Source: a virus. From it: 45,869 nt of DNA. The stretch spans positions 1-45,869 of IMG/VR virus record IMGVR_UViG_2721755987_000001; one strand, written 5' to 3'. The notes under the pieces were generated by a model. It saw nothing but the letters and a program-made list of their open reading frames with translations, ran no database searches and was not told the origin of the DNA. The position numbers and the translations under genes were made by a program. Positions 22,995 through 45,731 of this stretch are shown piece by piece (position 1 is the first letter of the stretch; every line of letters begins with the position of its first letter).

Positions 22995-23038
22995 GCTCCC
23001 TGCCGCTGGCTGCCTCTCGGTGCAGCCAGCGGCAGGGA
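22995..23038. terminator. 18-bp-stem hairpin between convergent genes
   Basis: CTCCCTGCCGCTGGCTGC-8 nt-GCAGCCAGCGGCAGGGAG. No T run on either side. Confidence 0.5.
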
Positions 23039-23042
23039 GATC

Positions 23043-23435: not shown

Positions 23436-23811
23436 TTTGGTTTTTCCAAGGTTCGGTAGGACATCCCTAGCGTAGGGATGCGATCGCCAAAAATCCGAGT
23501 TGACCCCTCGTTTTTGGGGCTTCCAAAAACCGCTTCACGGAATCTTCAAAAACTTCATCGCAGCTTGATTGAAAAACGATTATTTTCAGCAGGGCTTTTT
23601 TGCGTTTTTGCCCTGCAACTTTCTATGGCAAGTGCCTCAAACGACGAAACGATTAAACCGTTTGGGCGATCGCCGCTATCCCATAAGAAATCCAAAAGCA
23701 AAATTGTTGCGATTCCGTTACACAGTTCTTTCTGGCGGTATTGGGGGGTTGACAGGCAGGTAGGAATCCTACAAGCGATGTATAGAGCGCAATGCGCCGC
23801 CCAATGGGTTT

Positions 23812-24510
23812 ATGGATTTAGAGCAAGCCTTGGCGAAAATCGCCGAACTTGAGACTGAAATCGGTGGATTGAAAGACGAGAAAACTGCCCTGCTCCGCAA
23901 GCGCGACGAGCTGCTGGGCAAGCTGAAAAAATTTCAGAAATTCGAAGCCTACGCTGATTTGGACGTGGAAGAGCTGATCCGAATCAAAGAATCCCAAGCC
24001 AGCGAGATCAAGGCCAAATACGAGTCTGCCTACCAAGCGGACAAAAAGCGACTGGAAGATCGAATCGCCGCCATTGAGGCAGAGCGAAAAGCGGAGGCTG
24101 AAGAGCGGGAGCGGGAGAGGCAACAGGTGCTGGCAGAGCGAATCCGTGCAGCGGCGATCGCCGAATTCTCCAAGCCCGATCACGGCGTGTTCAACGCTGA
24201 TCAACTTTTTCGCTTGGTGGGCGATCGCGTGCGCCTGGACGAACAGGGCAAGCCGGTGGTGGGAGACGAGTACAAAGAGCTGCCGCTCGCTGACTACCTG
24301 AAAGAGCTGCGCTCCGACCCGGACTATCAGAACCAATTCCGAGCCACGGGCGTGACCGGCTCCGGCTCCAGCCCCAGCACGGGCACGGTGAGCGCAGGCA
24401 CAGTGAACCCCTGGAAGAAAGAGACGTTCAACCTGACGCAGCAGGGCAAGATTCTGCGCGAGAATCCTCAGCTCGCCAAGGCGCTGAAGACAGCCGCTGG
24501 GGTTCAGTAA
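23812..24510 (+). CDS. Scaffolding protein (putative)
   Basis: 232 aa, strongly charged coiled coil (LKDEKTALLRKRDELLGKLKKFQKFE...). Lies directly upstream of the capsid gene. Confidence 0.65.
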   Translation: MDLEQALAKIAELETEIGGLKDEKTALLRKRDELLGKLKKFQKFEAYADLDVEELIRIKESQASEIKAKYESAYQADKKRLEDRIAAIEAERKAEAEERERERQQVLAERIRAAAIAEFSKPDHGVFNADQLFRLVGDRVRLDEQGKPVVGDEYKELPLADYLKELRSDPDYQNQFRATGVTGSGSSPSTGTVSAGTVNPWKKETFNLTQQGKILRENPQLAKALKTAAGVQ

Positions 24511-24534
24511 GAGCGAGTTGTTGAGTCCGCATGG

Positions 24535-24560
24535 CCGCCTCTCGAAAGAGGCGGTTTTTT
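24535..24560 (+). terminator. Rho-independent terminator/attenuator between scaffold and capsid genes
   Basis: CCGCCTCT-CGAA-AGAGGCGG followed by TTTTTT. Confidence 0.7.
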
Positions 24561-24655
24561 GTTTGTAGGAACGCTGATGGCGATCGCGCAATGCGCCCGC
24601 CCACAGGCAATGCCGGTTGGGGCGACAAAAAACTACTCTCCAATCAGCAAGAACA

Positions 24656-25633
24656 ATGCCTGCAACAAAATTAGCTGACATTCTAATTCCGGAAATTTGG
24701 GTGCCTTACATGACTATCCGCACCAAAGAGCTATCCGCTCTCTGGTCGGCTGGCATCCTCGACCAGAACGAACAGTACGATCGCCTCGCGGCGGGCGGTG
24801 GCAGCACGGTGCAGATGCCTTTCTTCCAAGATCTAACGGGCAATTCTGAGGTGCTTAGCGACGCAGCCAGCTTGACGATTGGGAAGATTACAGCCACCAA
24901 AGACGTTGCTCACATCCACTACCGAGGCAAGGCCTGGGGCGCGAATGATCTGGCAAAGGCTCTCTCTGGGGCTGACCCGATGGCGGCGATCGCTGACTTG
25001 GTTGCCACTTGGTGGGCACGCGATTTTCAGAAGACACTGCTGTCCAGCCTGAAGGGGATTTTCACCACCACGCTTGCCAGCACTCACGTTCTGGATGTTT
25101 CGATCGCCGATGGCAACGCCGCAACGGCTGCAAACAAAGTCAGCTCTGACAACGTGATCAGCGCCTTCGACAGGCTGGGCGATGCCTCGGCAGACCTGAC
25201 GGCGATCGCCATGCACAGCGCGATCTATCACAACCTGCTGAAGCAAGATGTGATCGAATTCGAGCAGCCATCTGAGCAGGGACAGCCGATTCAGCGCTAC
25301 CTGGGCCGCCGAGTCATCGTCGATGACTCACTGCCCAAGGTGGCAGGCGCAACCAGTGGTTTTGTCTACACCACCTACCTGTTCGGACAGGGGGCGATCG
25401 CCTTCGGCGAGGGCAATCCTGATGAGCCAGTGGAAATGGATCGCGACATCCTGGCTGGCGAGTCCTACCTGGTGAATCGTCGCCACTTCATCCTGCACCC
25501 CAAGGGCGTGAAGTTCACCGGCACGCCCGCTGGTGTCTCTCCCACTAATGCCGAGCTGGAAACCGGCGCGAGCTGGAGCCGTGTTTATGAGATCAAGAAT
25601 GTCCCAATAGTTGCGCTCAGGACAAATGGCTAG
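24656..25633 (+). CDS. Major capsid protein
   Basis: Track ORF 24617 trimmed to ATG 24656 (MPATKLADILIPEIW). 325 aa. Called from its position after the scaffold gene and HK97-fold-type sequence character. Confidence 0.7.
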   Translation: MPATKLADILIPEIWVPYMTIRTKELSALWSAGILDQNEQYDRLAAGGGSTVQMPFFQDLTGNSEVLSDAASLTIGKITATKDVAHIHYRGKAWGANDLAKALSGADPMAAIADLVATWWARDFQKTLLSSLKGIFTTTLASTHVLDVSIADGNAATAANKVSSDNVISAFDRLGDASADLTAIAMHSAIYHNLLKQDVIEFEQPSEQGQPIQRYLGRRVIVDDSLPKVAGATSGFVYTTYLFGQGAIAFGEGNPDEPVEMDRDILAGESYLVNRRHFILHPKGVKFTGTPAGVSPTNAELETGASWSRVYEIKNVPIVALRTNG

Positions 25634-25645
25634 GAGGCACCTCGC

Positions 25646-25852
25646 TTGGGACTAACTGCATTCAACAAAGCCCGCCGCGAGGCGGCTGAGCGAGCGAACG
25701 TGCCCGCTGAAGAGCTGACCTATGACGAGGCGATCGCCATCCTGGTACAGCCTCTGTTGACCAGTTCTCCAGCACCAGCGAATGAACCCGAAAAGGTTGC
25801 AGACCCTGCACCGCGCCGCGCTCGCAAGCCTCGCACCAAAGCCGCCGAATAA
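25646..25852 (+). CDS. Hypothetical small protein (68 aa)
   Basis: TTG start preceded by TAGGAGG. Basic C-terminus. Confidence 0.45.
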   Translation: MGLTAFNKARREAAERANVPAEELTYDEAIAILVQPLLTSSPAPANEPEKVADPAPRRARKPRTKAAE

Positions 25853-25862
25853 CAGGTGATCT

Positions 25863-26219
25863 ATGCCCTTCGCTGCCACCACGCTTGATCGAGTCATGGG
25901 AGCGCTCTCGCTCCCGCTCACCCGCTTCTACGTTGAAGCGGTGCAGGATGCGCTTGACCATGCCGAGGCCTATGGCGGCGAAGGGGCGATCGCTCGCATC
26001 GAGGGCTATCTCACGCAATACGAAGCGGCTGAAACCGCTCTAAACGAGGGAGCCGAAAGCGCGGGGCTGATCAAAGCCGCCGTGCTGGAGTGGCAACCCG
26101 GCACTCGCAATCAGGGCTACAAGTCAGAAATGAAACGGCTGAGGGGGTTGATTGCTAGCAGTCTCAACCTCAGCCGTTTGGCGCAGGGGGGCGGGCGAGT
26201 GAGGTTGATCCGTGGCTAA
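25863..26219 (+). CDS. Putative head-tail connector protein (118 aa)
   Basis: Called from position and size in the capsid-to-tail gene series. Overlaps the next gene. Confidence 0.5.
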   Translation: MPFAATTLDRVMGALSLPLTRFYVEAVQDALDHAEAYGGEGAIARIEGYLTQYEAAETALNEGAESAGLIKAAVLEWQPGTRNQGYKSEMKRLRGLIASSLNLSRLAQGGGRVRLIRG

Positions 26220-26610
26220 ATCGCCCTTCGCCGCCTACGTCAATTTCACCGCCAGCTTCACTGTCGCTGGCGACGCGCTGGAGCAAGATGCGCGAGGCAA
26301 CTGGCGGCCCAGCACCGCGACGGTGGCGGTGACGGCAGTAGTGGAGCAAGCAAAGGACGGCAGAAAGCAGTCAGACGAGATTCGTCGCCCTGGCGTTGAT
26401 TCGCGTGCCATCTACCTCAAGGGCTACCTGGTCGAGCCGCGCCCGCTGCCTGCCAGTGTCACCCCGATTTCGCCCTGCTCAGCCACCTACAACGGGCTAA
26501 GCGGCTCGTTTGTGATGGATTTCACAGGGCGAAACCCCTACCTGCAAGCGCTGGGCATCGACTTGGTAGACGAGATCAAAGGCTGGTTCCTACCTAATTC
26601 TTTCACCTAG
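26212..26610 (+). CDS. Putative head closure / adaptor protein (132 aa)
   Basis: Called from position in the connector series. No motif recognised. Confidence 0.5.
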   Translation: MAKSPFAAYVNFTASFTVAGDALEQDARGNWRPSTATVAVTAVVEQAKDGRKQSDEIRRPGVDSRAIYLKGYLVEPRPLPASVTPISPCSATYNGLSGSFVMDFTGRNPYLQALGIDLVDEIKGWFLPNSFT

Positions 26611-26615
26611 AAAAA

Positions 26616-27035
26616 ATGAAGCTTTCCAAATATTTCACGCTGGCCGAGATGACCGCTAGCCAGACAGCAACCCGACGCGGCATCAGCAACGTGCCCGATG
26701 CGGCAGCAATCGCCAACCTGAAGGCGCTCTGCGAAAACGTGCTGGATAAGGTTCGCGAACACTATGGCGTACCCATCACGCCCAACTCCGGCTATCGCTC
26801 GCCCGCGCTGAACGCCGCCGTGGGTGGCAGCCGCAACAGCCAGCATTGCATCGGCGAAGCTGTGGATTTCACGGTTCCAGGGCGTTCGATCCCAGAGGTC
26901 TGCGAGTGGATCCGCAAAAACCTGGAATTTGATCAGCTGATCCAGGAGTTCTACAACCCTCGCACCGGAAGCGGCTGGATTCACGTCTCTTTCCGGCGCG
27001 GGCGCAATCGCAAGCAGTTTTTGAGAATTGGCTGA
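26616..27035 (+). CDS. Peptidase M15 family cell-wall hydrolase (endolysin candidate)
   Basis: FTLAEM..., SGYRSPALNAAVGGSRNSQHCIGEAVDF and GWIHVSF match the Zn-binding H/D/H pattern of Peptidase_M15_3. Confidence 0.8.
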   Translation: MKLSKYFTLAEMTASQTATRRGISNVPDAAAIANLKALCENVLDKVREHYGVPITPNSGYRSPALNAAVGGSRNSQHCIGEAVDFTVPGRSIPEVCEWIRKNLEFDQLIQEFYNPRTGSGWIHVSFRRGRNRKQFLRIG

Positions 27036-27391
27036 TGACCCAGGTAAAAATCGACCTGACCCGAATCACCACAGCAGCGCAATCGGCAATGGCGCAGACC
27101 GCGCTGCTGATTCATCGCAGGGCGATCGAGGTGATCAGCGAACCGGGCGCATTTGATGGCTTCGACGGCGATATTGTAGACACGGGCGTGCTGCGGGCCA
27201 GCCAGCAGCCGCCTGAAATTAGGGGCAACACGGCAATCCTCAGAAACACCGTGGACTATTCGATCTACGTGCATGAGGGCTACACACTCCGCAGTGGGGG
27301 AAGGCAGCCTGGCCGCCCGTGGATGGAGGAAGCAGTTCGTCGAGCCGAGCCTCAAAAAGCCTTTGAAACCCTCCTGACGGCAAAACTGTGA
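27035..27391 (+). CDS. HK97 gp10-like tail-completion/minor capsid protein
   Basis: IVDTGVLRAS..., VDYSIYVHEGYT and GRPWMEEA follow the gp10-family pattern. Confidence 0.6.
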   Translation: MTQVKIDLTRITTAAQSAMAQTALLIHRRAIEVISEPGAFDGFDGDIVDTGVLRASQQPPEIRGNTAILRNTVDYSIYVHEGYTLRSGGRQPGRPWMEEAVRRAEPQKAFETLLTAKL

Positions 27392-27810
27392 TTAACTACC
27401 CCGCAATCCGAGACGCGCTGGCGATCGCCCTGGCTGATCATCTCGGCACCTACACCTTTGGCAACGGGCTGAGCACACCGGCGGTGCAGATCGACGACGG
27501 CTCCGATCCCTTGCCAGAAAGCCCCCGTATAGAGGGGCTGGAGATGGTGATTGAGCCGAGCGTCCGGGTGCCGATTGCTGGAGCCTTCGGCGGCTATCGG
27601 CAGACCTTCAGCGGCAACGTGATCCTGAAGCAGTGGGACATCACGAAAACCACGCTGGAAGCCATGCCGATTGTTCTCGATGTGCTGCGATCGCAGTTCT
27701 CAGAGCTGAAGGTTGCCAATGCAGAGCGGGTCATCCGCAGCCTGAAGCTCGACAACATCGAGACGTTTTCGGTGCAGATCAGTCAGGAGTTTTTCAGCGA
27801 TAGCGATTAG
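27388..27810 (+). CDS. Putative tail terminator/completion protein (140 aa)
   Basis: Last gene of the connector series. Its start overlaps the upstream stop. Confidence 0.5.
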   Translation: MINYPAIRDALAIALADHLGTYTFGNGLSTPAVQIDDGSDPLPESPRIEGLEMVIEPSVRVPIAGAFGGYRQTFSGNVILKQWDITKTTLEAMPIVLDVLRSQFSELKVANAERVIRSLKLDNIETFSVQISQEFFSDSD

Positions 27811-27826
27811 TCCGGAATTCCGGACT
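27809..27826. repeat. Palindrome-family copy 3 (perfect 18-mer AGTCCGGAATTCCGGACT)
   Basis: Overlaps the stop codon of 27388..27810. Identical 18-mers occur at 38309 and 43492. Confidence 0.9.
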
Positions 27827-27837
27827 GAGTTCGGGAT

Positions 27838-27863
27838 GCCCACCCCGCAACGGGTGGGCTTTT
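27838..27863 (+). terminator. Rho-independent terminator upstream of the tape-measure gene
   Basis: GCCCACCC-CGCAAC-GGGTGGGC followed by TTTT. Confidence 0.7.
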
Positions 27864-27914
27864 CAAGCCGCCAAATTGCCGTAGGCACTCTACCTGAGAA
27901 CTCGTGGCTCAGGT

Positions 27915-30900
27915 ATGGCTGGATCGGTAGAACTTAGCGTTAGCCTCTCACTTGCTCAACTACTGAAGGATGCGGCCCGCGCCTCCCAAGTGATTAAGCA
28001 GCAGCTCAAGGATCAAGAGATTAAGGTCAACCTCAAGACCGAGGCGGGCGGGATTGCGGGGCTGGCCCGGACGCTGAAGAGCACCTATGGCGAGGCGCAG
28101 CAGTTTGCTAAGTCGCTGGGGCTGACGGGGGATCAGGCAACGGCGGCGATCGCCAGGGTTCGCGAACTCGATGCCGTCAGCGCGACCACGGCAGAAAAAT
28201 TCAAAGCGCTGAAGAACGAATTTGGCTTGACCGCCGTTCAAATGAACCAGGTGATCAAGGCTGCCAAAGCCGTTGAAGAGCAGTTCAACGCCCAAGCGAA
28301 AGCGGCGCAGAACAATAGCCAGCAGGTTGTGAACTTGGCGCGATCGCTCAATACGAGTTTTACGAGCGCAGAGAAATATGCGTCGGGATTGGGGCTGACG
28401 GCTCAGAAGGCAAATGAGGCGATCGCCAAGCTGCGCGATCTGGACAAAGCCGGTGCAACCAACGCCGAAAAGTTTCGTGTCCTCAGCAAAGAGTTGGGCG
28501 TGACCAGCCAGCAGTTCGAGGTGCTGAACAAATCAGCAGCTCAGACCACCGAAGGGCTGACGGCAGTGGCGGCGGGTGCAGGGGCGGTTAGTGCAGCCGT
28601 CAGCGCTGCCTTCGTGAAAGGCACACAGGATTTTATTGCCTTTGATAGCGCAGTGCGACAGTCGGGCGTGATCAGCGGCTCGACGGGCACACCGCAACTC
28701 CAAGCGCTGAGAGAAGAGGTAGAGCGCCTGGGCATTGTCACGTCCAAAGCTCCGGCTGAGGTGGCAAAAATGAGCGTCAGCCTCAGCCGCGCTGGCTTCA
28801 CGGCTGAAGAATCAGCAGCCTCGCTAGAGGCGATTGTGCGGGCTGCTGAGGGGACTGGGGAAGCGGTTGAGGTGGTAGGCGATATCGTCGCCAAGACCTA
28901 CCGCTCGTTTCAGAAGGAGTTTGAAGCAGCGGGTACGGGCGTGAGAGATGCCTCGAACCAGATTGCTGATGCGCTGGTCGCAACGGCCAATAACACGAAC
29001 ACCTCGGTTGTTACTCTCGGCGAATCGCTGAAGTACGTCTCAGCTCAGGCTGCTGCCAGCAATCAGCCGATGGAGGATGTGCTTGTCTTGTTGGGATTGT
29101 TGGGTGACGCGGGCATTCAGGGCAGCCAAGCAGGTACAAACCTGGCCCAGGCATTGGAGAGGCTCAAGTTGGCGAGTGCAGGAGCTGAGTCAGAGTTCTC
29201 TGGGCTTCTAAAAGGCAGCGCAAAGGCTACTTCTGCCTTCAATGCAATCGGTGCCGAGGTTCGCAATGCCGACGGCACGATGAAGAGTGTGCTTGAGATT
29301 CTGCCTGTAATGCAAGAGAAGCTGAATTCGCTAGACAGCCAGGCAGATAAAGACATCCTGATGAAGGCGTTGTTTGGCGTGGAGGGCGGGCGCGCTTTCC
29401 AGGTGCTGCTAAACACGACCCCAGACCGGATCGACCTGGTGACAAAGAAAATCTATGAGTCTGAGGGCGCGGCGATCGCCTCCGGCAAGGCATTGAACCA
29501 GGGGCTAGGCGGGGCACTCAACCTGTTTGGTGGATCGCTGGAAACCGTCAGTACCAAGTTTGGTGAATTCATCGCGGTCGGCTTGGAGCCGGCCGTGACC
29601 GCCGCCACAAACCTGCTCAACACGTTTTTGGGTGCGCCGCCCATCGTGCAGAAGCTGATCATCGGCGCGACGGCCCTGACGGGTGCATTTAGCGCAGCCG
29701 TGGCGATCATCACCACCTACAAGCTGCTGAATATCCAGCTTGTAGCCACGCAGGCAGCTCAGACTGCGGCCATGATTGCCAGCGCGATCGCCTCCAAGGG
29801 CGCGGCGGCGGCTCAACTGCTGTTCAACACGCAGATCACGGCGACCAACCTCCAGCTTGTGGCGTTGCGGGCGGGCATTCTGGCTGCTGCTGTTGCCAAG
29901 AAGGCTTATGCAGTTGCCACGGGTGGCGCAGTTGTGGCAACCAAGGGGCTGCTGGTGGCGCTGGCTGGTGTGGCTCCGCTGCTAGCGGCGATTGCTGCTG
30001 GTATTGCAGCGATCAAATTCGCCCAATTTGCCAACGATTTGCGGCGGGCAAACGAATCAATCGACGAATTTAGCCAGCGAGTTGCAACGAGTGGCGACGA
30101 GGCGATCGCCGCCGCTGGCAGAACCAAGGCAGCAGCCGAAAAGCTCAATCAGGCACGGACAGAGGGACGCAAACTGACAGAGCAAGAAATCGCCGACGCT
30201 AGGAACCTGCTGAAGGCGAACCAGCAGCGACTGCAAGGGCTGCAAGACGAACTGAAAGCAGCCGAAAGCATCACCACCGCCAACGACGAACAGGCCCGGA
30301 GCAAGGCAGCGCTGATCCAAAACCTGCAAACCTCAATTGGTGCGCTGGAAAGCCAGAACCAAAAGCTGAATGAGGCGGTAGCGGCGCACAATGCTGCGGG
30401 CGCTGCTGCTGAAGAGCAAGGCAAAAAAACCAAGGAAGCGGCCAATGCGGTAAAGCAGGCAATCGCCTCCTACGAGGCCCTGACGGCAGAGCTTGAGAGC
30501 CAGGATCAGACAGCCAGGACAAGCATCACCGAGGATCTGGCAAAGGGGCTAATCAGCGAAAAACAAGCCCAGCAAGCGTTCCTAGACCAAGAGAAAGCCT
30601 TCAACCAGCAGCGCCTGAACGAGGCTGAAAGGTTCGCGGCTGAGCTGAAAGAGCTGCGTAGCGTCACCACCGATCCGAAGGAGCTTGAGGAGCTAAACAA
30701 ACGGATTCTTGATGCAGATAAAACTGTGGCGGATGCGCGGCTGGCGATCGCCGAAACCGCCCTGAAAGAACGTGAGCAGGCGGAGAAAGACGCGCTAGAG
30801 CGCATCGAGGCAGCAAACCGCGAGAGCGAGGCGCGGATCTCCGAAAGCCAGCGATCGCGGGTGCTGGCAGTACGCCAAGCTCAGCTTGACGGCGTGAAGA

Positions 30901-32162
30901 CGGCAGAGCAGGCAGAGCGGGCGATCGCCCAAATCGAGCAAGACGGCATTGCCCAGCGGGTCGCTCAAAAGCAGCAGGAGCTAGCTCAGGTGCGACAGCT
31001 CCGGCAACAGGGGACGCTGAGCGCCGAGGAAGCCCGCGATCGCGAGCTATCGCTGAATGAGGAGATTGGGCAGCTTAACCTCCAACGGATCGAGAAAGAG
31101 ATTGAGGCACAGGAAAAGGCGCGTCAGGCAGCGCTGAAGGCGGCGGAGGATCAGAAGAAAGCAGCAATTGAGGCGATCGAAGCGGCTGGCAACGCTGCTA
31201 AAAACGTGCTTCAGTCTGGGCAGATTGAGTTGGATATTGCTTCGAAGTCCAACAGTGCTGAGTCTGGGCTATTGGCTGCACAATTGGAGCAGCAGCGGGC
31301 GATCGCCGAAGTGGAGCAAGTGCGCCTGAATGGGGCGATCGAACGGGCTAAGCTGGCAGGTGACGACGTACTTGCTGAGCGGCTCAAACTGAAGCAAGTG
31401 CGTGCACAACAGGCAGCACTGGAGCAACAGTTTCAGATTGAGCAACAGCAGCTCACGCTGTCTCAGCAGCAGCGGGCGATCGAGCTAGAACGCCAAAAGA
31501 TTGCGGCTGAAATTGCGGCAATTGAGGCAGAGGTAGCGGTACAGAAGGCGATCGCCAATGGCGCGAGTGAGGCTGAGATCAACAACCTGCAAACGATTCT
31601 GGGATTGCGGCAAAAACAGGTGAAACAGGCGCAAGCTGCTGAGGCACAGCAGGATCGGCTAAACCAGCTAGAGTCTGAAACACTGGCAGCACGGCAGGAA
31701 TCGCGGCGCATTCAGGGTCAAACGGCGATCGCCCAACAGGAGGCAGCAATCAAAAACGCGCAGAAGCAGCGGGCTGAAGGTCGGCCTAGCCAGGAAGATG
31801 GGGGCGATCGCCCTTCTAGACCCCGTGGCCCCAGTGCCGAGGAACTGGAGAAGCTGCGAATCGAGCAAGGTCTGAGAAACGGCTTCAATGCGGCCGGGTC
31901 ACCCCTACGACAGCTCAAGAGCAAGATGCCCGGTGTGCAGGCTCCAAATTTGAGTCCGGTTACTGATTTGAGCGGGCTGGGCACGGTATTGCAAGAGGGC
32001 AACGGGCTAGTTATTCGCAAGCTGGATGAGCTGAAGGCGGCAATCACGCAGCTTGCCAATACGCCGCGCTGCGTGAGCGTGAGCGCTCCTGATCCAGTGG
32101 GCGCGGTCGGGCAAGTGCTGGCGGATATCAATCGCCAAAACTTTAGGAGATCCAAGCTATGA
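27915..32162 (+). CDS. Tail tape measure protein (1415 aa)
   Basis: TP901-type core (ALREEVERLGIVTSKAPAEVAKMSVSLSRAGFTAEESAASLEAIVRAAEGTGE...), hydrophobic central segments and a very long Q/A/E coiled coil. Confidence 0.9.
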   Translation: MAGSVELSVSLSLAQLLKDAARASQVIKQQLKDQEIKVNLKTEAGGIAGLARTLKSTYGEAQQFAKSLGLTGDQATAAIARVRELDAVSATTAEKFKALKNEFGLTAVQMNQVIKAAKAVEEQFNAQAKAAQNNSQQVVNLARSLNTSFTSAEKYASGLGLTAQKANEAIAKLRDLDKAGATNAEKFRVLSKELGVTSQQFEVLNKSAAQTTEGLTAVAAGAGAVSAAVSAAFVKGTQDFIAFDSAVRQSGVISGSTGTPQLQALREEVERLGIVTSKAPAEVAKMSVSLSRAGFTAEESAASLEAIVRAAEGTGEAVEVVGDIVAKTYRSFQKEFEAAGTGVRDASNQIADALVATANNTNTSVVTLGESLKYVSAQAAASNQPMEDVLVLLGLLGDAGIQGSQAGTNLAQALERLKLASAGAESEFSGLLKGSAKATSAFNAIGAEVRNADGTMKSVLEILPVMQEKLNSLDSQADKDILMKALFGVEGGRAFQVLLNTTPDRIDLVTKKIYESEGAAIASGKALNQGLGGALNLFGGSLETVSTKFGEFIAVGLEPAVTAATNLLNTFLGAPPIVQKLIIGATALTGAFSAAVAIITTYKLLNIQLVATQAAQTAAMIASAIASKGAAAAQLLFNTQITATNLQLVALRAGILAAAVAKKAYAVATGGAVVATKGLLVALAGVAPLLAAIAAGIAAIKFAQFANDLRRANESIDEFSQRVATSGDEAIAAAGRTKAAAEKLNQARTEGRKLTEQEIADARNLLKANQQRLQGLQDELKAAESITTANDEQARSKAALIQNLQTSIGALESQNQKLNEAVAAHNAAGAAAEEQGKKTKEAANAVKQAIASYEALTAELESQDQTARTSITEDLAKGLISEKQAQQAFLDQEKAFNQQRLNEAERFAAELKELRSVTTDPKELEELNKRILDADKTVADARLAIAETALKEREQAEKDALERIEAANRESEARISESQRSRVLAVRQAQLDGVKTAEQAERAIAQIEQDGIAQRVAQKQQELAQVRQLRQQGTLSAEEARDRELSLNEEIGQLNLQRIEKEIEAQEKARQAALKAAEDQKKAAIEAIEAAGNAAKNVLQSGQIELDIASKSNSAESGLLAAQLEQQRAIAEVEQVRLNGAIERAKLAGDDVLAERLKLKQVRAQQAALEQQFQIEQQQLTLSQQQRAIELERQKIAAEIAAIEAEVAVQKAIANGASEAEINNLQTILGLRQKQVKQAQAAEAQQDRLNQLESETLAARQESRRIQGQTAIAQQEAAIKNAQKQRAEGRPSQEDGGDRPSRPRGPSAEELEKLRIEQGLRNGFNAAGSPLRQLKSKMPGVQAPNLSPVTDLSGLGTVLQEGNGLVIRKLDELKAAITQLANTPRCVSVSAPDPVGAVGQVLADINRQNFRRSKL

Positions 32163-32909: not shown

Positions 32910-33155
32910 TCATTCCTCATCTCCGCTAAGCCACTCAGTTTCAAGCTCTTCTAGCGTGATGCCGCGATACCTGGCGATCGCTTCCATTTCCTTTTGGATT
33001 TCTGCCCAGTTAGCCTCAATCCTGTTTTGGATGATGTTTGCTCCTAGCGTGGCTCGGTTGGTGCCTTTGAGCTTTGCCCAAAGCAGTAATTTTCTGTGAT
33101 ACCAGTCCGGTAACGAAACTCCAAAGCGCACCATTGCCATCAAGTCCATAAACAT
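32910..33155 (-). CDS. Ribbon-helix-helix (CopG/Arc-like) DNA-binding protein
   Basis: VRFGVSLPDWYHRKLLLWAKLKGTNRATLGANIIQNRIE has the beta-strand/helix/helix pattern of RHH regulators. Several alternative Met starts exist. Confidence 0.6.
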   Translation of the reverse strand: MFMDLMAMVRFGVSLPDWYHRKLLLWAKLKGTNRATLGANIIQNRIEANWAEIQKEMEAIARYRGITLEELETEWLSGDEE

Positions 33156-34104: not shown

Positions 34105-34383
34105 ATGCTTGACAAAATCACAGAGCTAAAAACCATTCAGAGCAAAGACCTGTGGCAGCAATGCCCCAATCCAGATTGCAGCGATGGCGAGGTTCCGAAC
34201 CCAGCCTGGGTTCACACCCGCGCGGCTGGGTTCGACTGGGAGAATTACGATTTTCAAGCCTTGCAAAGGCGTGTCGGGCCTGAGTTTGAGACTTGCCCTG
34301 ATTGTGGCGGCAGGGGAGAAGTCCTAACTGAACTGGGGCAGGCTCTCAAGCATCTTGCCCGCCTAATTGAGTCTGTTCGCTGA
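34105..34383 (+). CDS. Hypothetical zinc-ribbon protein (92 aa)
   Basis: CPNPDC...CPDCGGRG (two CxxC pairs). AGGAGAAAAATACC precedes the ATG. Confidence 0.55.
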   Translation: MLDKITELKTIQSKDLWQQCPNPDCSDGEVPNPAWVHTRAAGFDWENYDFQALQRRVGPEFETCPDCGGRGEVLTELGQALKHLARLIESVR

Positions 34384-34780: not shown

Positions 34781-34884
34781 TTGCTCACCTTTTATGGGCG
34801 ATCGCCGTCCCCGACCAAAGTTCTGGCGATCGCCCGCGTTGCCCCATTACCGATGCTCATCTTGCCGCCGTTCGGGAAGGAGGA

Positions 34885-35010
34885 ATGATGAAGCTTTTGA
34901 TCTTTTGCCTCTGCCTGACCGTGTTGCTATCCTGCGACCCGACCGATATGGGTTGGGTCAGTTCAACCTTGCTTACGGAGATGACTTATGAACACTCACC
35001 TACTCGGTAG
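34885..35010 (+). CDS. Small lipoprotein (41 aa; below track cutoff)
   Basis: Own translation: MMKLLIFCLCLTVLLSCDPTDMGWVSSTLLTEMTYEHSPTR. Lipobox-like LLSC and a strong RBS GGAAGGAGG. Confidence 0.55.
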   Translation: MMKLLIFCLCLTVLLSCDPTDMGWVSSTLLTEMTYEHSPTR

Positions 35011-35359
35011 CGCCCTTGGAGCGCTGATCACCGCTGCTGCTGTTATTCCGCCCGATGCCCTTGCGCCAGAGGTTTCAGCCGACCCCACCCCGTCGCCGTC
35101 GGCGCTCGGAATGGTCGAAATCGTGCCCGGCAACGGGTTCTATTGGCTGCGAGGCTACAGCTACGCGCCTGGGCAACCGCCGCAGCTTCCCCCCGTTCCC
35201 GTCGGCGCGGCTGGTGTGGTCTACGATGCGACCGGGCGCTGCATTGGTCGATTTGAGGCGCAACAGTTTGTTTTCCTGGATGCCGATTCGGTGCAGTGCG
35301 TCGGTATCCCAACCGCGCCGCCGGTCGTGTACCAATTCGCATCGGGAGAGCAGGGTTAA
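34988..35359 (+). CDS. Secreted/periplasmic protein (123 aa)
   Basis: Signal-peptide-like MNTHLLGSALGALITAAAVIPPDALA. Overlaps the lipoprotein ORF out of frame. Confidence 0.55.
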   Translation: MNTHLLGSALGALITAAAVIPPDALAPEVSADPTPSPSALGMVEIVPGNGFYWLRGYSYAPGQPPQLPPVPVGAAGVVYDATGRCIGRFEAQQFVFLDADSVQCVGIPTAPPVVYQFASGEQG

Positions 35360-35508
35360 TGGGGCATTGGCTTTGCGTGGCAGGCTTGACCCTGCTGCTG
35401 TTGTTTGTCTATAGCCCCCGCAACAGCACCAGCCGCCCCTGGCTGGGACTGTTTGGGGCGATCGCCATCGCATCCCTGACCCAAGCCCGGAGGCAAGATC
35501 ATGAGTGA
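35359..35508 (+). CDS. Small two-TM membrane protein (49 aa)
   Basis: Track ORF 35296 trimmed to ATG 35359 (TAATG coupling). Sequence: MGHWLCVAGLTLLLLFVY...WLGLFGAIAIASL. Confidence 0.45.
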   Translation: MGHWLCVAGLTLLLLFVYSPRNSTSRPWLGLFGAIAIASLTQARRQDHE

Positions 35509-36274
35509 CACCCAAGCGACCGAATCCGCCAAAACACCCTCGACCCCACCCAGCAGCCCAGACCGCCGTGAGAGCGTCAGGCAGGCAATGGAGCGGGCTG
35601 CCCAGAGCCGCGCCAGCAAACCGAGCAATACGACCCCAGAGCGCAAACCCAGCAGCCCCATCCGCTCCGATGCCTACCTGGAGAAGCAGGATCGCGGACA
35701 AAAGGCGATCGCCAAAGGAATTGGCACGTTGCACCTGTTTTTGGGGCTGGCGCTGAGCTGGCTTCGCACCTTCTTTCAGCGCTCTATCCTATCGCTTGTA
35801 GCCATGCTCATTCTGTTGATCGGCATGGCGCTGGCGGCGGAATCCTACAGCCTGAGTGCTGGCACTTTGCCCGCTGCTGTGCTGCCAAAGCCGGGGGTTG
35901 CCTGGGGCGCTGCTGCTGAAAACATTCAGGCAATCCTGAACAGCTTTAGCGGCTGGGAATGGTTTCTGCTGGCTTGCACCTGCTTTTTTGCGATCGCCGT
36001 CCAAGCGATTCAATGGGGCAGCATCCGCTATCTCGGAGCGCGTACCCGTGTTGGTTCCACTGGCGGCAAACTTGCCCTCTCTGGCTGGGCGCTGTTGCCA
36101 TTCGTCATCTTTGTCGGCTTCATCTGGTGGCAAGACCTACAGATCGTGAGCGGGCTGTACCTGGCGCAGGGCTTCACCCTTGGCGGCTTGCTGGTGTGGT
36201 TTTGGGCTGCATTCCCTAGCGAGATTGCTGAGGCATTTATTCAACTGCAAAAATCCCTACCTGCTGAGGACTAA
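35501..36274 (+). CDS. Polytopic membrane protein (257 aa, about 5 TM) with S/P-rich N-terminus
   Basis: ATG overlaps the upstream stop. Hydrophobic helices from residue ~85 onwards. Confidence 0.65.
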   Translation: MSDTQATESAKTPSTPPSSPDRRESVRQAMERAAQSRASKPSNTTPERKPSSPIRSDAYLEKQDRGQKAIAKGIGTLHLFLGLALSWLRTFFQRSILSLVAMLILLIGMALAAESYSLSAGTLPAAVLPKPGVAWGAAAENIQAILNSFSGWEWFLLACTCFFAIAVQAIQWGSIRYLGARTRVGSTGGKLALSGWALLPFVIFVGFIWWQDLQIVSGLYLAQGFTLGGLLVWFWAAFPSEIAEAFIQLQKSLPAED

Positions 36275-36302
36275 CTTGGAATTTATTCAGAGGACTAGAG
36301 CG

Positions 36303-37919
36303 ATGGTCTATGCAACTTGGAAAGACGAGCTACAGGCATTTGAGGCCGACTGCGATCGCCTTCGCAAAGCGCGGCGTGAGAGCTTTCCGATCAAAGTGCT
36401 GGGACTAGCGCCCCTGGCTGCAATCCCGCTGATGGGCAGCTTGCCCGGCGGTCGCAGGCTGCTGGCGTTTGCAGGCATGGCGATCAGCGGGGCATCGCTG
36501 TTGCTGGAGCTTGACCGGCAGCGCGACATCTACGGCGGCAACCTGGCGATCGACCTAAATCCGAATAGCGATTACGACAACCTGGCAGGCGCATTCAAGA
36601 CGCGATCGCCCCGGTGGGAAGCACTCGCCTATCTCTACAGCCAGCTTGACCCGGTGAACCTGAAAGACAAGCTAGGGCAGCTCGACGACCCCACGGCTAA
36701 GCGATGCCTCGACCGGATGCTACGCCGGGTGCGCTCTGGGCTAGATGAGATTCGGGCGCTGAATCCGAACAAACCTGCCTACAGCGACATAGTGCTGGAC
36801 ATCACGGGCGAATGGAAAACCGACACCATTAAGATCCTCGACCGTGCGCTATTCAGCGCAGGCGCGGCCACGCTGGAAGATGTGGATCTGAGCGAGGATG
36901 AGGCGCTGGCGGCGCTTGATGATGTGCGTGTCACTGATGAGGCGATCGCCCCCGTCCCCACTCAGCAGCCCTCGACCGTTGCGCTGTTCAACTGGCATGA
37001 TCTCGCAGCGCGACCCGACTTCTATCCTCATCTGCTGCTATTGGGGAAAACTGGCGCGGGCAAAACTCATTTGGCTGAAAAGCTGCTGAGTCTGCTACCG
37101 GGCGATCGCCTGATCATCAGTCCTCACGTCCGCCCGCATGAGTTCCCAGGTGTGCCAAAGGTTGGGATGGGGCGTGACTATGGCGCTATTGCTGAGGCGC
37201 TGGCAGAGCTAGAGCAGGAAATGCAGCAGCGCTACGAACAGTACGCCAAAGGCATCGATGCTGGGCGCTGGCTGAATGTGGTGATTGATGAATACCCGGC
37301 GATCGCTGCCTACTGCAAAAATGCCAGCGGCGTGATTCAAGTCCTGGCCCGCGAGGCTCGTAAGGTGCGGATCAGGCTGCTGATCCTCAGCCAAGGCGCG
37401 GAGGTCAAGACGCTGGGCATCGAGGGACAGGGCAGCTTGCGCGAGTGCTTCACCTTTTGCCGGGGGCGAGGCTTCGTAGAAGACCACGCGCGGCGACTGA
37501 AAGATGAGGCGATCGCCCGGTGGGTTGCCTCGCAGCCCTTCCCCTGGATGGTGGAAGACCAGTGCGCCGACACCTCGACCCTGGCGGCTGTAGAACCTGT
37601 AGAACCTATGTCCAACAGCGGTTCTACACCCCTCGACAGTGAGCCAGAAGATGAGGGTGAAGCGGTAATAGAGCCGCTGATGCTGCCTGGCATCATGCTC
37701 AGCGATGAGGCGACGCGGCTGCTGGTATGGCTCACCCGCAAAGCGCAACAGGGCAAGCTGTCGCACACCCTGCGAGAGATTCAGCAAGGCAAGCCGCTAG
37801 GCAAGACGGCGGCGCATACCGTTGAGGCGTTGCAGCCGGTGATCAGTGAACTGCTGGCTGCTGGGCTGGTAAGCTTCACCGATGGGGCGATCGCGCTCAA
37901 CGGTTTTGTAGAACCGTAG
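36303..37919 (+). CDS. Membrane-anchored FtsK/SpoIIIE/TraB-like P-loop ATPase with C-terminal winged-helix-like domain (538 aa)
   Basis: Track ORF 36180 trimmed to ATG 36303. Two N-terminal hydrophobic helices. Walker A LLLGKTGAGKTH, Walker B-like WLNVVIDEYP, then ARKVRIRLLILSQGAEV. C-terminus: LSHTLREIQQGKPLGKTAAHTVEALQPVISELLAAGLV. Confidence 0.7.
   Translation: MVYATWKDELQAFEADCDRLRKARRESFPIKVLGLAPLAAIPLMGSLPGGRRLLAFAGMAISGASLLLELDRQRDIYGGNLAIDLNPNSDYDNLAGAFKTRSPRWEALAYLYSQLDPVNLKDKLGQLDDPTAKRCLDRMLRRVRSGLDEIRALNPNKPAYSDIVLDITGEWKTDTIKILDRALFSAGAATLEDVDLSEDEALAALDDVRVTDEAIAPVPTQQPSTVALFNWHDLAARPDFYPHLLLLGKTGAGKTHLAEKLLSLLPGDRLIISPHVRPHEFPGVPKVGMGRDYGAIAEALAELEQEMQQRYEQYAKGIDAGRWLNVVIDEYPAIAAYCKNASGVIQVLAREARKVRIRLLILSQGAEVKTLGIEGQGSLRECFTFCRGRGFVEDHARRLKDEAIARWVASQPFPWMVEDQCADTSTLAAVEPVEPMSNSGSTPLDSEPEDEGEAVIEPLMLPGIMLSDEATRLLVWLTRKAQQGKLSHTLREIQQGKPLGKTAAHTVEALQPVISELLAAGLVSFTDGAIALNGFVEP
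37590..37627. repeat. 8-mer cluster 1: GTAGAACC x2, GTCCAACA, GGTTCTAC (inside the ATPase gene)
   Basis: Exact copies at 37590..37597, 37599..37606, 37610..37617 (reverse complement of TGTTGGAC) and 37620..37627 (reverse complement of GTAGAACC). Confidence 0.85.
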
Positions 37920-38011
37920 AACCTGTTGGACGTGTTGGACGTGTAGAACCGGGGTAAAACACCCCGGTTTTTAGTGCCCGCGATCGGGTTCTACAGTTCT
38001 ACAAGTTCAAC
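37908..38011. repeat. 8-mer cluster 2: GTAGAACC x3, TGTTGGAC x2, GGTTCTAC plus degenerate copies
   Basis: GTAGAACC at 37908, 37916 and 37943. TGTTGGAC at 37924 and 37933. GGTTCTAC at 37987, AGTTCTAC at 37995 and AGTTCAAC at about 38004. The cluster spans the stop codon and terminator. Confidence 0.85.
37949..37972 (+). terminator. Rho-independent terminator after the ATPase gene
   Basis: CCGGGGT-AAAAC-ACCCCGG followed by TTTTT. Confidence 0.75.
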
Positions 38012-38091
38012 AAGCCGCTTTGTATTTGTCACGGGTTCGCAACACAAGCGCTTAGAAATTGACGAAGGGCGATCGCACTGGTAAATTTTAG

Positions 38092-40614: not shown

Positions 40615-41640
40615 ATGTTTGAGCTTTCAAATTACACCCAAGTTCCAAATCAGTTCTTGGACAACATAAATTGTTTCAGCAATGCCGAGTTCAAAGTTAT
40701 GGCCCTAATTTTCAGGGAAACGCTTGGCTATCACAGACAGGTAGCAGAGATACCTAACAAGCTTTTTCAACACAGAACCGGACTGTCGCATCAGGGTGTC
40801 AGGAATGCGATCGCCTCACTGAAGTCGCGGAACTGCATTTTTGAATCGAAGGGGAAGCTGCATAACTCCTACGGAGTTGTCCTTGAGTCGATCAACTCAG
40901 TTGATCAGTCGATCAACTCAGTTGATCAGTCGATCAACTCAGTTGATCAGTCGATCAACTCAGTTGATCAAGCGTCGCCCGAAACCCTTGAAAAATCCTA
41001 TGCTGCAAGCTCCCTAAAGAAAGATCTAAAGAAAGATCTAAATAAACTTAAAGAAAGGCCGGATCCGGAATGCGCGAGAGAAAAATCGCTTCGCTCTTCC
41101 GAACCAGCCAAGCCGACCCAGGGGATAAACGGTGGATCGGAGGTACGGGCTTCGCTGCCAAGCGAGCTAAAGAAACGGGTCGTGCTGAAAAGAGCTGTAG
41201 AGGATCAGGGTTCCGCCGACGCGCCGCCGCCTGCGGAAAACTTTGAGCCGTGGTGGAGTGACCCCGGCTCCCCTGATCAAGAGTTTTTGGAATACCTTCT
41301 GCGGTTCTACCTGCCCACCGTGCCGAGCTACCGAGATACGAGCCTAAACCTCGGACACGCCCGCCTGTGGCTCAGCCGCGCCCGCCACGACGATGGCCGC
41401 CACGAAGCAGCGCAGATCCAGTACCAGTGCTTCCTGGAGTGGAAAGACCGCCAAGCCCCGCAAGCCCCGGCCGCTAGGACTCCCACCTCTGCCAACCCTG
41501 TCCCGCTGCCCGTACCTCTGGCTGCTCGGCTAAGGGGTATGGCGCGCGTGCCCGCGCTCCGATCCCAGGCGATCGCCCGTGCCAGGGAAGCGGGTATCCC
41601 CATCGAACACCTCGGCTTGGCGGAGGTTGATCATGCCTAG
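40615..41640 (+). CDS. Replication initiator, lambda O-like N-terminal domain (341 aa)
   Basis: YTQVPNQFLDNINCFSNAEFKVMALIFRETLGYHRQ...TGLSHQGVRNAIASLKSRN matches the phage replication-O/replisome-organiser pattern. Iterons are embedded in the gene. Confidence 0.7.
   Translation: MFELSNYTQVPNQFLDNINCFSNAEFKVMALIFRETLGYHRQVAEIPNKLFQHRTGLSHQGVRNAIASLKSRNCIFESKGKLHNSYGVVLESINSVDQSINSVDQSINSVDQSINSVDQASPETLEKSYAASSLKKDLKKDLNKLKERPDPECAREKSLRSSEPAKPTQGINGGSEVRASLPSELKKRVVLKRAVEDQGSADAPPPAENFEPWWSDPGSPDQEFLEYLLRFYLPTVPSYRDTSLNLGHARLWLSRARHDDGRHEAAQIQYQCFLEWKDRQAPQAPAARTPTSANPVPLPVPLAARLRGMARVPALRSQAIARAREAGIPIEHLGLAEVDHA
40886..40969. repeat. Origin iterons: 4 perfect tandem 21-bp repeats
   Basis: Unit (AGTCGATCAACTCAGTTGATC) x4, each containing the palindrome ATCAAC-TCA-GTTGAT. 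Encodes (SINSVDQ)x4. Confidence 0.9.
41015..41060. repeat. AT-rich region next to the iterons (candidate DNA-unwinding element)
   Basis: TAAAGAAAGATC x2 (41015..41038), followed by TAAATAAACTTAAAGAAAGG. Confidence 0.55.
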
Positions 41641-44313: not shown

Positions 44314-44664
44314 ATGACCAAGCTCACTTTGGCAGAGCTGCACCAGCGGCTCACAAAGTTGGAAGAGCAGCAGCGCTGGGTGGAGCGCGTGTTGGAAGCC
44401 TACGGCATTCGCGGGCTGTGGCTGTCGCCTGCCAAGGCTGCGCCGCTACTGGGAGTAGGGCGCGATCGCATCATGGCGGAAATTCGCCAGGCTGAAAAAA
44501 TGCGGGCGCTAAGGCAGCAAGGCGACCTGCAATACGGTATTCACTATCGCAACGTGCAAGACCCTGAAGCTGCCGAACCGACCTGGCAAGTTCACGTCGA
44601 GGCGTTTGACGGCGTGCTTCAGATCCCACCAGATGAGCGCCGCCTGCCCATCACCTCTCGATAG
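44314..44664 (+). CDS. Excisionase/RDF-like HTH protein (116 aa)
   Basis: Track ORF trimmed to ATG 44314 (GGGAGAGACTG upstream). WLSPAKAAPLLGVGRDRIMAEIRQAE is a MerR/Xis-type HTH. Lies adjacent and convergent to int, with a 46-nt overlap. Confidence 0.5.
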   Translation: MTKLTLAELHQRLTKLEEQQRWVERVLEAYGIRGLWLSPAKAAPLLGVGRDRIMAEIRQAEKMRALRQQGDLQYGIHYRNVQDPEAAEPTWQVHVEAFDGVLQIPPDERRLPITSR

Positions 44665-45731
44665 ATCTTCAGGTAGGGCTGCTCTCCCCACCAAGCGCGA
44701 TAGGTCGTGAGGTGAACGTCTAGCGAGTGGCCCATCGACTGGGCTAAAAAGTCTGGGCTGAAACCCAGTTCAAACCCGCGACGGGCGTAGGAATGCCTCA
44801 AATCATAGGGATTAAAGCCCAGCTTGAGCTGCCGAAACTTTTGAGACACAGCCATTCCTAGCTGATTGTTATTCCGCCCTTCAATCCTGACGGGTGGCAG
44901 CTCCCAGCTTTGAAAATCCATCTGCCAGCCATCACCGGGCAACGGAAACACGATCCGTTGCCCGGTTTTTGTTTGGTTTGGCACTTCTAATAAAGCTGGA
45001 TCTTCTTGAAGGCGATCGGGAATTGCCAACAGCGCCTCATGCGGGCGCAGCCCATACACAGCCAGCGCTGAATACAGCCACGCCCACCCGCCGCGAAACC
45101 TGCTGGCAGCGGCGGCGATCGCCTCATCAGTTGGCAAGTTGCGCGGGTTCACACTGCGATCGCTGGAATAGCCAGCACCCAGCGCCGTCAGCTCTTGATG
45201 CCCCTCCAACCCCGCAAACTCTGCCAGCCGCCGAAACGCATAGGCATATCCCTTTCGGCTGCGAGTCGCTGGGGCGCTGCGCTCCAAAATCACTCGCTTC
45301 AGCAGCTCCAGGCTGAGGGGTTCCTCCTGTGGTAAGTGATTGAATTTCAGCTCAAAATCTTTGTGCCACGTATTCAGCTTGCTTGGCTCTTGGGACGTGC
45401 GGCTCCAGTGATCCGCCTCGAAGCGCTCCAGCCATTCGCCTACGGTCTGCGCTGGCTTCTGCTTTCCCCTCAGCCACGGCGACCAATCGAATTTCTCTCG
45501 AATAAGCTGGCTTTCGATCTCGTGAGCGATCGCCACTGCCTGATTCAGCCCAGCCGGCGTGGCCGGCTTGCCTGTGGCGATCTCCTGAGATTTGGGGCGG
45601 CTACCAGTTCCGGGCTTGGGTGGTAGCGTGGCCCGCAATGAGAGGCGATCGCCACGACGGCGGATAGACACTAGTTTGAGCTGCTGATTAGCCTGCTCAA
45701 TCCGCTCATCAATTGCCCAAATTTTGCCCAA
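44619..45731 (-). CDS. int: Tyrosine integrase
   Basis: 370 aa. GLRPHEAL, YDLRHSYARRG (H-x-x-R) and MGHSLDVHLTTYRAW (catalytic Tyr). Lies next to attR and the tRNA. Confidence 0.9.
   Translation of the reverse strand: MGKIWAIDERIEQANQQLKLVSIRRRGDRLSLRATLPPKPGTGSRPKSQEIATGKPATPAGLNQAVAIAHEIESQLIREKFDWSPWLRGKQKPAQTVGEWLERFEADHWSRTSQEPSKLNTWHKDFELKFNHLPQEEPLSLELLKRVILERSAPATRSRKGYAYAFRRLAEFAGLEGHQELTALGAGYSSDRSVNPRNLPTDEAIAAAASRFRGGWAWLYSALAVYGLRPHEALLAIPDRLQEDPALLEVPNQTKTGQRIVFPLPGDGWQMDFQSWELPPVRIEGRNNNQLGMAVSQKFRQLKLGFNPYDLRHSYARRGFELGFSPDFLAQSMGHSLDVHLTTYRAWWGEQPYLKIYREVMGRRRSSGGI

Follow-up and report, generated by a model that had tools for sequence, protein, structure and literature searches.

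Among the closest described counterparts of the system considered here are the clt sites (transfer loci that act in cis) of Streptomyces plasmids. The clt of pWTY27 comprises the last 16 bp of traA together with 159 bp, carries four 7-bp direct repeats as well as inverted repeats, and has been footprinted by TraA, which has two predicted transmembrane segments; the clt of pJV1 contains nine 9-bp direct repeats, again with inverted repeats; and in pSVH1 TraB, a protein that forms a hexameric pore, helix alpha-3 of the wHTH (winged helix-turn-helix) domain at the C terminus reads 8-bp repeats (PMC3583192; PMC4170104; PMC4447253). Here we describe a putative counterpart of such a system in a 45,869-nucleotide stretch of DNA catalogued as virus record IMGVR_UViG_2721755987_000001 (hereafter, the window), in which a gene for an FtsK-like P-loop ATPase with a winged-helix tail (36303-37919, + strand; 538 residues from the first ATG) carries two arrays of short repeats at its 3' end. 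The 127 copies of GCGATCGC (HIP1, highly iterated palindrome 1) in these 45.9 kb mark the source of the window as a HIP1-rich cyanobacterium, and the closest DNA relative recovered is the metagenome-assembled genome 'Cyanobacteria bacterium J069' (L001). To our knowledge, relaxase-independent DNA transfer by an FtsK-type motor with a clt site is established only in actinomycetes, and the literature searched yielded no cyanobacterial counterpart of TraB and clt.

The arrays are built largely from two 8-mers. GTAGAACC occurs eight times in the window, at 37590, 37599, 37908, 37916 and 37943 on the + strand and at 37620, 37987 and 41303 on the - strand, against 0.56 +/- 0.78 copies expected from dinucleotide shuffles, and TGTTGGAC occurs five times, at 37924, 37933 and 44284 (+) and at 37610 and 31247 (-), against 1.02 expected; neither count was equalled or exceeded in any of 100 shuffles. 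Seven of the eight copies of the former and three of the five copies of the latter lie within the clusters, which also hold a copy matching at seven of eight positions (AGTTCTAC, 37995) and a degenerate one (AGTTCAAC, 38004). A preceding inspection of the letters alone (the sequence-only reading) had placed every repeat correctly, these last two included, and had noted the outlying GTAGAACC at 41303; it missed the outlying copies of TGTTGGAC at 31247 and 44284, and its chance expectation of 1.4 copies comes down to about 0.6-1.0 with dinucleotide shuffles. With one GTAGAACC and two TGTTGGAC outside the clusters in the whole window, neither word is common, enriched or strand-skewed there. The two 8-mers share a 7-bp unit, GTWGRAC, spaced at 8-9 bp; the window has 31 copies of it, of which 12 are packed into two blocks, 37590-37628 and 37908-38011, within 143 bp.

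Each block opens with direct copies and closes with inverted ones. Cluster 1 (37590-37628) reads GTAGAACC-T-GTAGAACC-TAT-GTCCAACA-GC-GGTTCTAC, two rightward units followed by two leftward ones; it lies in frame in the ATPase gene, is translated as VEPVEPMSNSGST, and corresponds to residues 430-442, where the disordered linker of the protein starts. Cluster 2 begins five codons ahead of the ATPase stop codon, with a direct block of five units at 8-9 bp spacing (37908-37950, + strand; GTAGAACC GTAGAACC TGTTGGAC-G-TGTTGGAC-G-T-GTAGAACC), and the stop codon itself (TAG, 37917-37919) is embedded in a repeat unit as G-TAG-AACC. At its centre stands a GC-rich hairpin resembling an intrinsic terminator (37947-37972, + strand; CCGGGGT / AAAAC / ACCCCGG, then TTTTT), with its stem at 37949-37955 and 37961-37967 and its T-run at 37968-37972, which was read in the sequence and confirmed by folding; a simple terminator scan did not list it, though it is visible in the fold. 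Three inverted units complete the cluster (37987-38011, - strand; GGTTCTAC-A-GTTCTAC-AA-GTTCAAC). The sequence-only reading had likewise set one cluster in the linker and the other across the stop codon and terminator.

Thermoleptolyngbya, Elainellaceae and metagenome or sequencing-run assemblies supply homologues of the ATPase at 76-88% identity, with weaker ones in Leptolyngbya and others; L003 is an element of Thermoleptolyngbya oregonensis NK1-22. When the 3' ends of 20 related loci were inspected, 14 further loci, cyanobacterial in every named source, were found to have arrays, placed in the linker or at the 3' end of the gene or in both positions, and eight of these 14 reproduce the full layout of the window. 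The unit is GTAGAAC in L002, L003, L010 and L011, TCTGAAC in L007, L008 and L027, GTCGAAC in L005, GTTGGAC/GTTGGGC in L004, GTTGGAT in L009, TAACACC in L012, TTTGAACC/TTTGGAC in L020, TGTCTAG in L021, ATCAGCA in L022 and GTCAGCA in L025. Hairpins equivalent to that at the centre of cluster 2 are present in L002, L003, L004, L007, L008 and L027. Thus the position of the arrays, their orientation pattern and the central hairpin are kept across loci of different genomes, each with its own unit, as one might expect of sites that belong to the adjacent ATPase, the interpretation that the sequence-only reading had put forward. One rival to a functional reading holds that the arrays are due to chance, or to simple-repeat noise that is generic in cyanobacteria (HIP1 or STRR, short tandemly repeated repetitive, type). 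The window is indeed extremely repeat-rich: HIP1-derived words dominate a sliding 7-mer survey, and besides the array words it showed strong repetition only for HIP1 itself and, near 40.9 kb, a tandem repeat of 21 bp. Given counts that no shuffle reached, and position, orientation and hairpin conserved across loci with differing units, we find this explanation scarcely credible.

Loci with both clusters have one common unit per locus, with the exception of L022. There the linker array is made of ATCAGCA/TGCTGAT, and about four copies of a direct repeat, (A/G)AGTTGTAC(C/T), follow the stop codon (6390-6455, ~70-135 nt beyond it) with a unit, GTTGTAC, unlike that of the linker; the arrays of one locus are therefore not always of one unit. 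L003 has, besides its arrays, a separate tandem repeat of about four copies of GGGACTGGC (7835-7870), just past the inverted block, where a convergent relaxase gene has its 3' end.

The unit changes with the tail of the protein. Over residues 1-429 the closest relative of the window protein is P0003, at 92% identity, but over the tail the two are only 38% identical, and the repeats of P0003 are TCTGAAC. P0003, P0005 and P0006 all show this pattern, with 86-92% identity to the window protein over residues 1-429 and 37-38% over the tail. For P0006, TCTGAAC was predicted from the tail class before the DNA was seen, and its locus, L027, has TCTGAAC in both clusters. In more distant homologues, unrelated tails are paired with unrelated units. 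In DNA comparisons, the window can be aligned with L007/L008 up to 37591, the second base of cluster 1, and with L002/L003 up to 38013/38014, just beyond cluster 2; L002 and L007, which are collinear on both sides, are homologous up to 7289 and again from 7707, the gap being exactly cluster 1, the tail and cluster 2. These breaks at the array edges delimit a replaceable cassette of ~420 bp, consisting of array, tail-coding segment and array, which is exchanged by recombination as one unit.

Breakpoints of this kind would also be expected if the repeats were recombination sites or hot spots, serving to shuffle cassettes or marking the end of an element, and had no role in loading a motor. Even closely related loci do differ in copy number (5+3, 4+3 and 6+8 units, for instance), and two contigs end within an array: L005, which has both clusters, ends inside cluster 2 (7648-7677), and L005 and L006, which are independent assemblies, both terminate ~30 bp past the stop codon, inside the GTCGAAC array. 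Such contig ends probably reflect assembly breakage at repeats, breaks at short repeats being a common assembly artefact. In every locus, moreover, mobile-element genes go on past the array, so that it is not the end of the element; no recombinase is consistently adjacent; and recombination sites need not co-vary with a DNA-binding tail or recur in the linker of a second gene. We therefore regard this rival as distinctly improbable.

The second gene in question is found upstream. In L002 (4612-4683) and L003 (4732-4821), a third cluster with the unit of the ATPase arrays lies 2.7 kb upstream, outside the cassette, where it is in frame in the linker that follows the signal or transmembrane segment of a 124-residue (L002) or 135-residue (L003) protein. 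Over 49 bp, the third cluster of L002 matches window positions 37588-37636 at 94% identity, and the window's own homologue of this protein (34988-35359) lacks the cluster. Since it stands outside the cassette and nonetheless has the unit of the ATPase arrays, agreement of unit is not merely a matter of physical linkage.

This bears on the possibility that some other factor of the host or the element binds the arrays, in termination control, nucleoid organisation or repression, and that the arrays simply hitchhike with the adjoining tail. Linkage alone predicts that contiguous segments co-vary, and as the arrays adjoin the tail-coding segment, the co-variation observed could in part be linkage; a terminator hairpin stands at the centre of cluster 2, and ribbon-helix-helix (RHH) and helix-turn-helix (HTH) regulators are encoded nearby. 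Yet elements with the same unit need share little else: DNA homology between the window and L002 is detectable only within 34854-38013, and the upstream genes in which they differ, for proteins of 238 and 92 residues, do not track the unit, although a homologue of a 72-residue open reading frame (ORF) was found by tblastn in L003 and L010. Conversely, the window and L008, with different units, are ~79-85% identical over that segment, the tail excepted. Nor would a host factor account for at least ten different units in related hosts. Taken together, the third cluster, the distant tail-unit pairs and the lack of anything else that differs argue for a functional coupling of unit and tail, and we think it improbable that an unrelated factor is responsible. 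The RHH regulator was considered separately as the reader and rejected: no copy of the GTWGRAC unit occurs in the RHH/operon promoter region of the window, and the RHH gene is not shared among loci with the same unit.

The make-up of the arrays indicates how they are read. Their direct and inverted halves are often non-complementary, with GTAGAAC facing seven copies of GTTGAAC in L003 and TCTGAAC facing GTGAACC in L008, and the window's arrays mix GTAGAAC, GTTGGAC and GTTGAAC. What is kept is the motif family, the spacing and the opposed orientation, which points to a protein reader. As single-stranded DNA, cluster 2 folds well (z = -4.9); a base-paired single-stranded DNA or RNA structure as the selected feature was nevertheless judged less likely than motif recognition, the halves being systematically non-complementary and the inverted one lying beyond the terminator.

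The AlphaFold 2 model of the ATPase (mean predicted local distance difference test, pLDDT, 82) comprises two long N-terminal helices, which probably form a membrane hairpin, a helical domain, a RecA-like core of the FtsK/TcpA/Tra type at residues ~225-425 with its Walker motifs (A, GKTGAGKT, 248-255; B, VVIDE, 326-330), a linker that is acidic and disordered (432-457) and, at the C terminus, a winged helix (468-532; helix-strand-helix-helix-strand-strand, pLDDT about 90). The segment coding for the winged helix (37704-37898, + strand; H1-b1-H2-H3-b2-b3, with H3 at residues 507-519) is bracketed by the two clusters. A profile of the family searched against the PDB found FtsK as the best solved structure (7e-7), followed by EccC and the coupling protein TcpA; Foldseek matched the core to the FtsK motor (8.6e-5) and TcpA (6o1w; 1.9e-4); and hhalign aligned the protein with Tra of Streptomyces pIJ101 (probability 94.4%, E 8.5e-8) over 135 columns, from Walker A to beyond Walker B. 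pIJ101 Tra itself matches Pfam FtsK_SpoIIIE and has a C-terminal MarR_2 winged helix. These results support membership of the FtsK/SpoIIIE/TcpA/Tra superfamily, and bear out the FtsK-like gene with a winged-helix tail that had been recognised from sequence. Modelled in isolation, the tail retains its fold (pLDDT 82, predicted template-modelling score 0.71), and Foldseek returns CRP, OhrR, MCM-WH and other winged helices for it (TM-scores 0.55-0.66, with weak E-values of 0.02-0.15); a tail profile gave nothing meaningful against PDB sequences, and a PDB sequence search with the 540-residue protein gave no match. In one relative, P0011 (L020, 4001-5719), the N-terminal ~200 residues of the family and the winged-helix tail are kept, together with TTTGAACC/TTTGGAC arrays, and the FtsK-like core is swapped for an unrelated P-loop domain (GRSQSGKTT) for which a PDB sequence search found no relative.

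By analogy with Streptomyces, the best reading of the locus would be a TraB-like translocase with a clt-like loading site, on an integrative element like the actinomycete integrative conjugative elements (AICEs). The ATPase would sit at the membrane, probably alongside a 257-residue membrane protein and a 123-residue exported protein encoded beside it, with its FtsK/Tra-like core as the motor. Its winged-helix domains, on a ~25-residue disordered linker, would bind the 7-8-bp GTWGRAC(C) units, and with three to eight units set 8-9 bp apart in two opposed blocks, several tails of one oligomer could engage together. Such engagement would assemble a ring on the element's own double-stranded DNA, which the ring would then pump; passage through a septum or to an adjacent cell seems most plausible. 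As the sites flank the coding segment of their reader domain, reader and sites would make up one specificity cassette. We consider it likely, on the indirect support of the co-variation, the exact cassette boundaries and the successful prediction for P0006, that the tail binds the arrays. That the arrays act in cis as the places where the ATPase encoded across them recognises or loads onto DNA, and so are the counterpart of clt, is a view towards which we lean by a small measure, and transfer of double-stranded DNA between cells, suggested by analogy, is a plausible outcome that we would put somewhat below an even chance.

A number of observations weigh against this reading. Arrays are confined to the linker in L009, L012 and L025, and there is no clear array in L015-L018, whose proteins are ~38% identical, or in two very small Nostoc plasmids. 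The ATPase scores just under the Pfam cut-off for FtsK_SpoIIIE (5.5e-5; 23.2 bits against 24) and matches no curated NCBIfam family. The 50 best Foldseek matches listed for the tail include generic winged helices and none specific to the FtsK gamma domain. The N-terminal helices are of borderline hydrophobicity (~1.55, Kyte-Doolittle sum), and a scan with its threshold set at 1.6 picked out no segment. Kinship with TraB, as judged by sequence, holds at the level of the superfamily only: similarity to pIJ101 Tra is limited to the P-loop core, and a tblastn search of 72,556 plasmids returned cyanobacterial records only, with no Streptomyces plasmid among them. Two further points, the relaxase genes near some relatives and the annotation of one homologue, count in the same direction and form part of the case for the principal rival.

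According to that rival, the ATPase is a type IV coupling protein like TcpA or VirD4, and the arrays dock single-stranded DNA, processed by a relaxase, to a type IV secretion system (T4SS) provided in trans. TcpA is nearly as good a Foldseek match as FtsK and also appears in the PDB profile search; genes for a relaxase (PF03432) and a NikA-like protein adjoin the module, at 0.2-2.6 kb, in L003 and L010; and the Prokaryotic Genome Annotation Pipeline (PGAP) labels a 36%-identical plasmid homologue as a T4SS conjugative DNA transfer/coupling-protein family member. On the other hand, those two loci are the only ones with a relaxase among those examined, and the window has no relaxase homologue; none of the ORFs scanned carries a VirB4 or other T4SS signature; and the likely oriT (origin of transfer) of L003 and L010 would lie elsewhere, upstream of nikA. 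We also know of no coupling protein reported to have a sequence-specific wHTH together with site arrays of its own. We consider a coupling protein unlikely, though it is the alternative that we take most seriously.

The surroundings of the ATPase are consistent with a translocase that belongs to a plasmid or integrative element. The window holds three blocks. The first is a phage structural block at 15.6-32.2 kb (15602-32162, + strand) with small and large terminase subunits (15602-17595), portal, Mu-F-like protein, capsid and tape measure. The second is the ATPase module, with a divergent small gene (32910-33155, - strand), several small genes, the 123-residue protein (34988-35359, + strand), the 257-residue membrane protein (35501-36274, + strand) and the ATPase. 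The third has genes for an HTH repressor, an initiator resembling RepO, an HNH-like protein and a tyrosine integrase. Between the tape-measure gene and the module, no gene was recognisable as one for baseplate, fibre or lysis. The window contains two tyrosine-integrase genes (11049-11879 and 44619-45731, both on the - strand), and may represent two elements in tandem, or one inside the other. Searches of GenBank phages and IMG/VR found no relative of the ATPase family, and the module looks like a plasmid or integrative-element function rather than a phage function; the DNA of the locus gave no similarity match to phages or plasmids. A phage packaging motor, suggested by a weak PHROGs match to terminase large subunit (phrog_2666, 5e-6), was rejected, the window having its own terminase and no phage relative of the family having been found. 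Libraries of anti-phage defence systems gave only a weak P-loop match (PADLOC mad8, 1.8e-5).

Within the module, the 257-residue protein is polytopic, with three clear hydrophobic segments; its gene lies immediately 5' of the ATPase gene in ten related loci, and it has homologues in L001-L011, the match in L010 being partial. The 123-residue protein has an N-terminal signal or transmembrane segment and is co-conserved with the ATPase. The small divergent gene at 32910-33155, for whose product Pfam gave no match, occupies the position of an RHH_5 gene in related elements and probably marks the left edge of the module. The 92-residue operon protein (34105-34383) has two CxxC pairs and a weak match to an anti-TRAP-like zinc ribbon (NCBIfam RtpA, 1e-6, below cut-off), and is not conserved in L002.

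Relatives of the ATPase are encoded on plasmids of Nostoc, Pseudanabaena, Allocoleopsis, Tolypothrix and Annamia, all of them filamentous genera, including replicons of 5.6 and 6.4 kb. In the related loci whose flanks were called, one strand carries a large gene, of primase/helicase type or unannotated, and an RHH gene, and the other an operon ending in the ATPase; a tyrosine integrase is often near the operon. Replication genes, an RHH gene, an ATPase-ended operon and a tyrosine integrase together make a layout like that of AICEs (PMC3429521).

The replication genes also speak to a further alternative, under which the arrays would be a partition centromere or replication iterons. Centromeres of types Ib and II (pSM19035, with its 7-bp heptads, is one example) and iteron origins typically have short direct and inverted repeats in clusters, which the arrays resemble. 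The window has canonical iterons elsewhere, however: four to five 21-bp tandem copies of AGTCGATCAACTCAGTTGATC, each internally palindromic (40865-40990), sit within the RepO-like gene (40615-41640) and look like a lambda-type origin inside an initiator gene, whereas array units are 8-9 bp long, shorter than the 17-22 bp of iteron repeats. Replication genes differ from locus to locus (RepO, D5_N, AAA_25, DUF3854, RepA) while the arrays follow the ATPase tail. For a centromere, scans of the window's proteins found neither ParA nor ParM nor TubZ among those covered, and on a Pseudanabaena plasmid (L025) a separate ParA gene and a weak ParB-like one stand beside the ATPase gene. Iterons and a centromere, both of which the sequence-only reading had kept as alternatives, are weakened by these findings to the point of being very unlikely.

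If the module works as TraB and clt do, TraB-type conjugation, or spreading within a filament, would extend beyond Actinobacteria, and a second multicellular bacterial lineage would have reached an equivalent minimal solution for moving DNA from cell to cell, with specificity carried on an exchangeable ~420-bp cassette. More speculatively, and with considerable doubt, filamentous cyanobacteria might harbour small integrative elements and plasmids, forming a large family so far undescribed, that move between cells as double-stranded DNA by means of one FtsK-like pump and its own clt-like arrays. With 553 clusters at 50% identity (E <= 1e-30), the ATPase family is a large one, and it has no curated annotation in Pfam and NCBIfam scans. 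A cassette of site, reader and site amounts to a natural experiment in how a specificity and its targets stay matched through recombination; it offers ready pairs of tail and 7-8-bp word from which rules of winged-helix recognition could be derived, and it could provide transfer or targeting parts for filamentous cyanobacteria.

Set beside known systems, the locus shares with TcpA and VirD4 the N-terminal helices followed by an FtsK-like NTPase, TcpA being among its best fold matches, and, in two loci, a relaxase nearby. It differs from them in its predicted sequence-specific DNA-binding tail with matching arrays, which is not known as a feature of coupling proteins, in the absence of a relaxase from most loci and in that no T4SS genes were found. 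The heptad centromeres and operators read by small DNA-binding proteins, such as omega of pSM19035, likewise consist of 7-bp tandem units in mixed orientation that are read cooperatively; there, however, the reader is a free RHH dimer working with a ParA-type ATPase, whereas here only the winged helix fused to the FtsK-like motor tracks the unit.

The closest structural relative of the motor is FtsK, and, as with FtsK gamma and KOPS (FtsK orienting polar sequences) or SpoIIIE and SRS (SpoIIIE recognition sequences), an 8-bp word would be read by a winged-helix tail attached through a flexible linker. Copies of KOPS and SRS are scattered along the chromosome, with a strand polarity directed at dif. 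The word considered here is instead confined to two or three tight clusters: in the window, seven of the eight copies of GTAGAACC are clustered, and the single copy outside shows no skew. The alpha-domain region of FtsK is moreover replaced by a different helical domain, and the 50 best matches listed for the tail include no specific gamma-domain match. Of the clt/KOPS-like loading site proposed from sequence alone, the clt-like part thus gains support from the comparative evidence, and the KOPS-like part fails, the sites being clustered rather than dispersed and polar.

The TraB/TraA-clt systems of Streptomyces (pSVH1, pWTY27, pJV1, pIJ101 and AICEs) belong to another phylum, and similarity to their proteins is undetectable beyond the P-loop core. 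In the cyanobacterial loci, two arrays bracket the segment coding for the wHTH, one of them translated as linker, with a third array sometimes elsewhere; the stop codon of the window's ATPase gene lies in a repeat unit, and a terminator hairpin forms the centre of its second array; exchange affects the cassette as a unit, and some relatives have a relaxase. The self-bracketed reader segment, the translated linker array and the exchange of a whole cassette are without described counterpart among the clt loci compared. Like Streptomyces, the named hosts of the cyanobacterial family belong to filamentous genera. Both kinds of element are small; they carry genes for replication, an integrase, regulators and a few membrane proteins, while no T4SS was found, and both encode an FtsK-type motor with a C-terminal winged helix, accompanied by a cluster of 7-9-bp repeats, direct and inverted, that lies at the motor gene's 3' end or overlaps it (PMC3583192).

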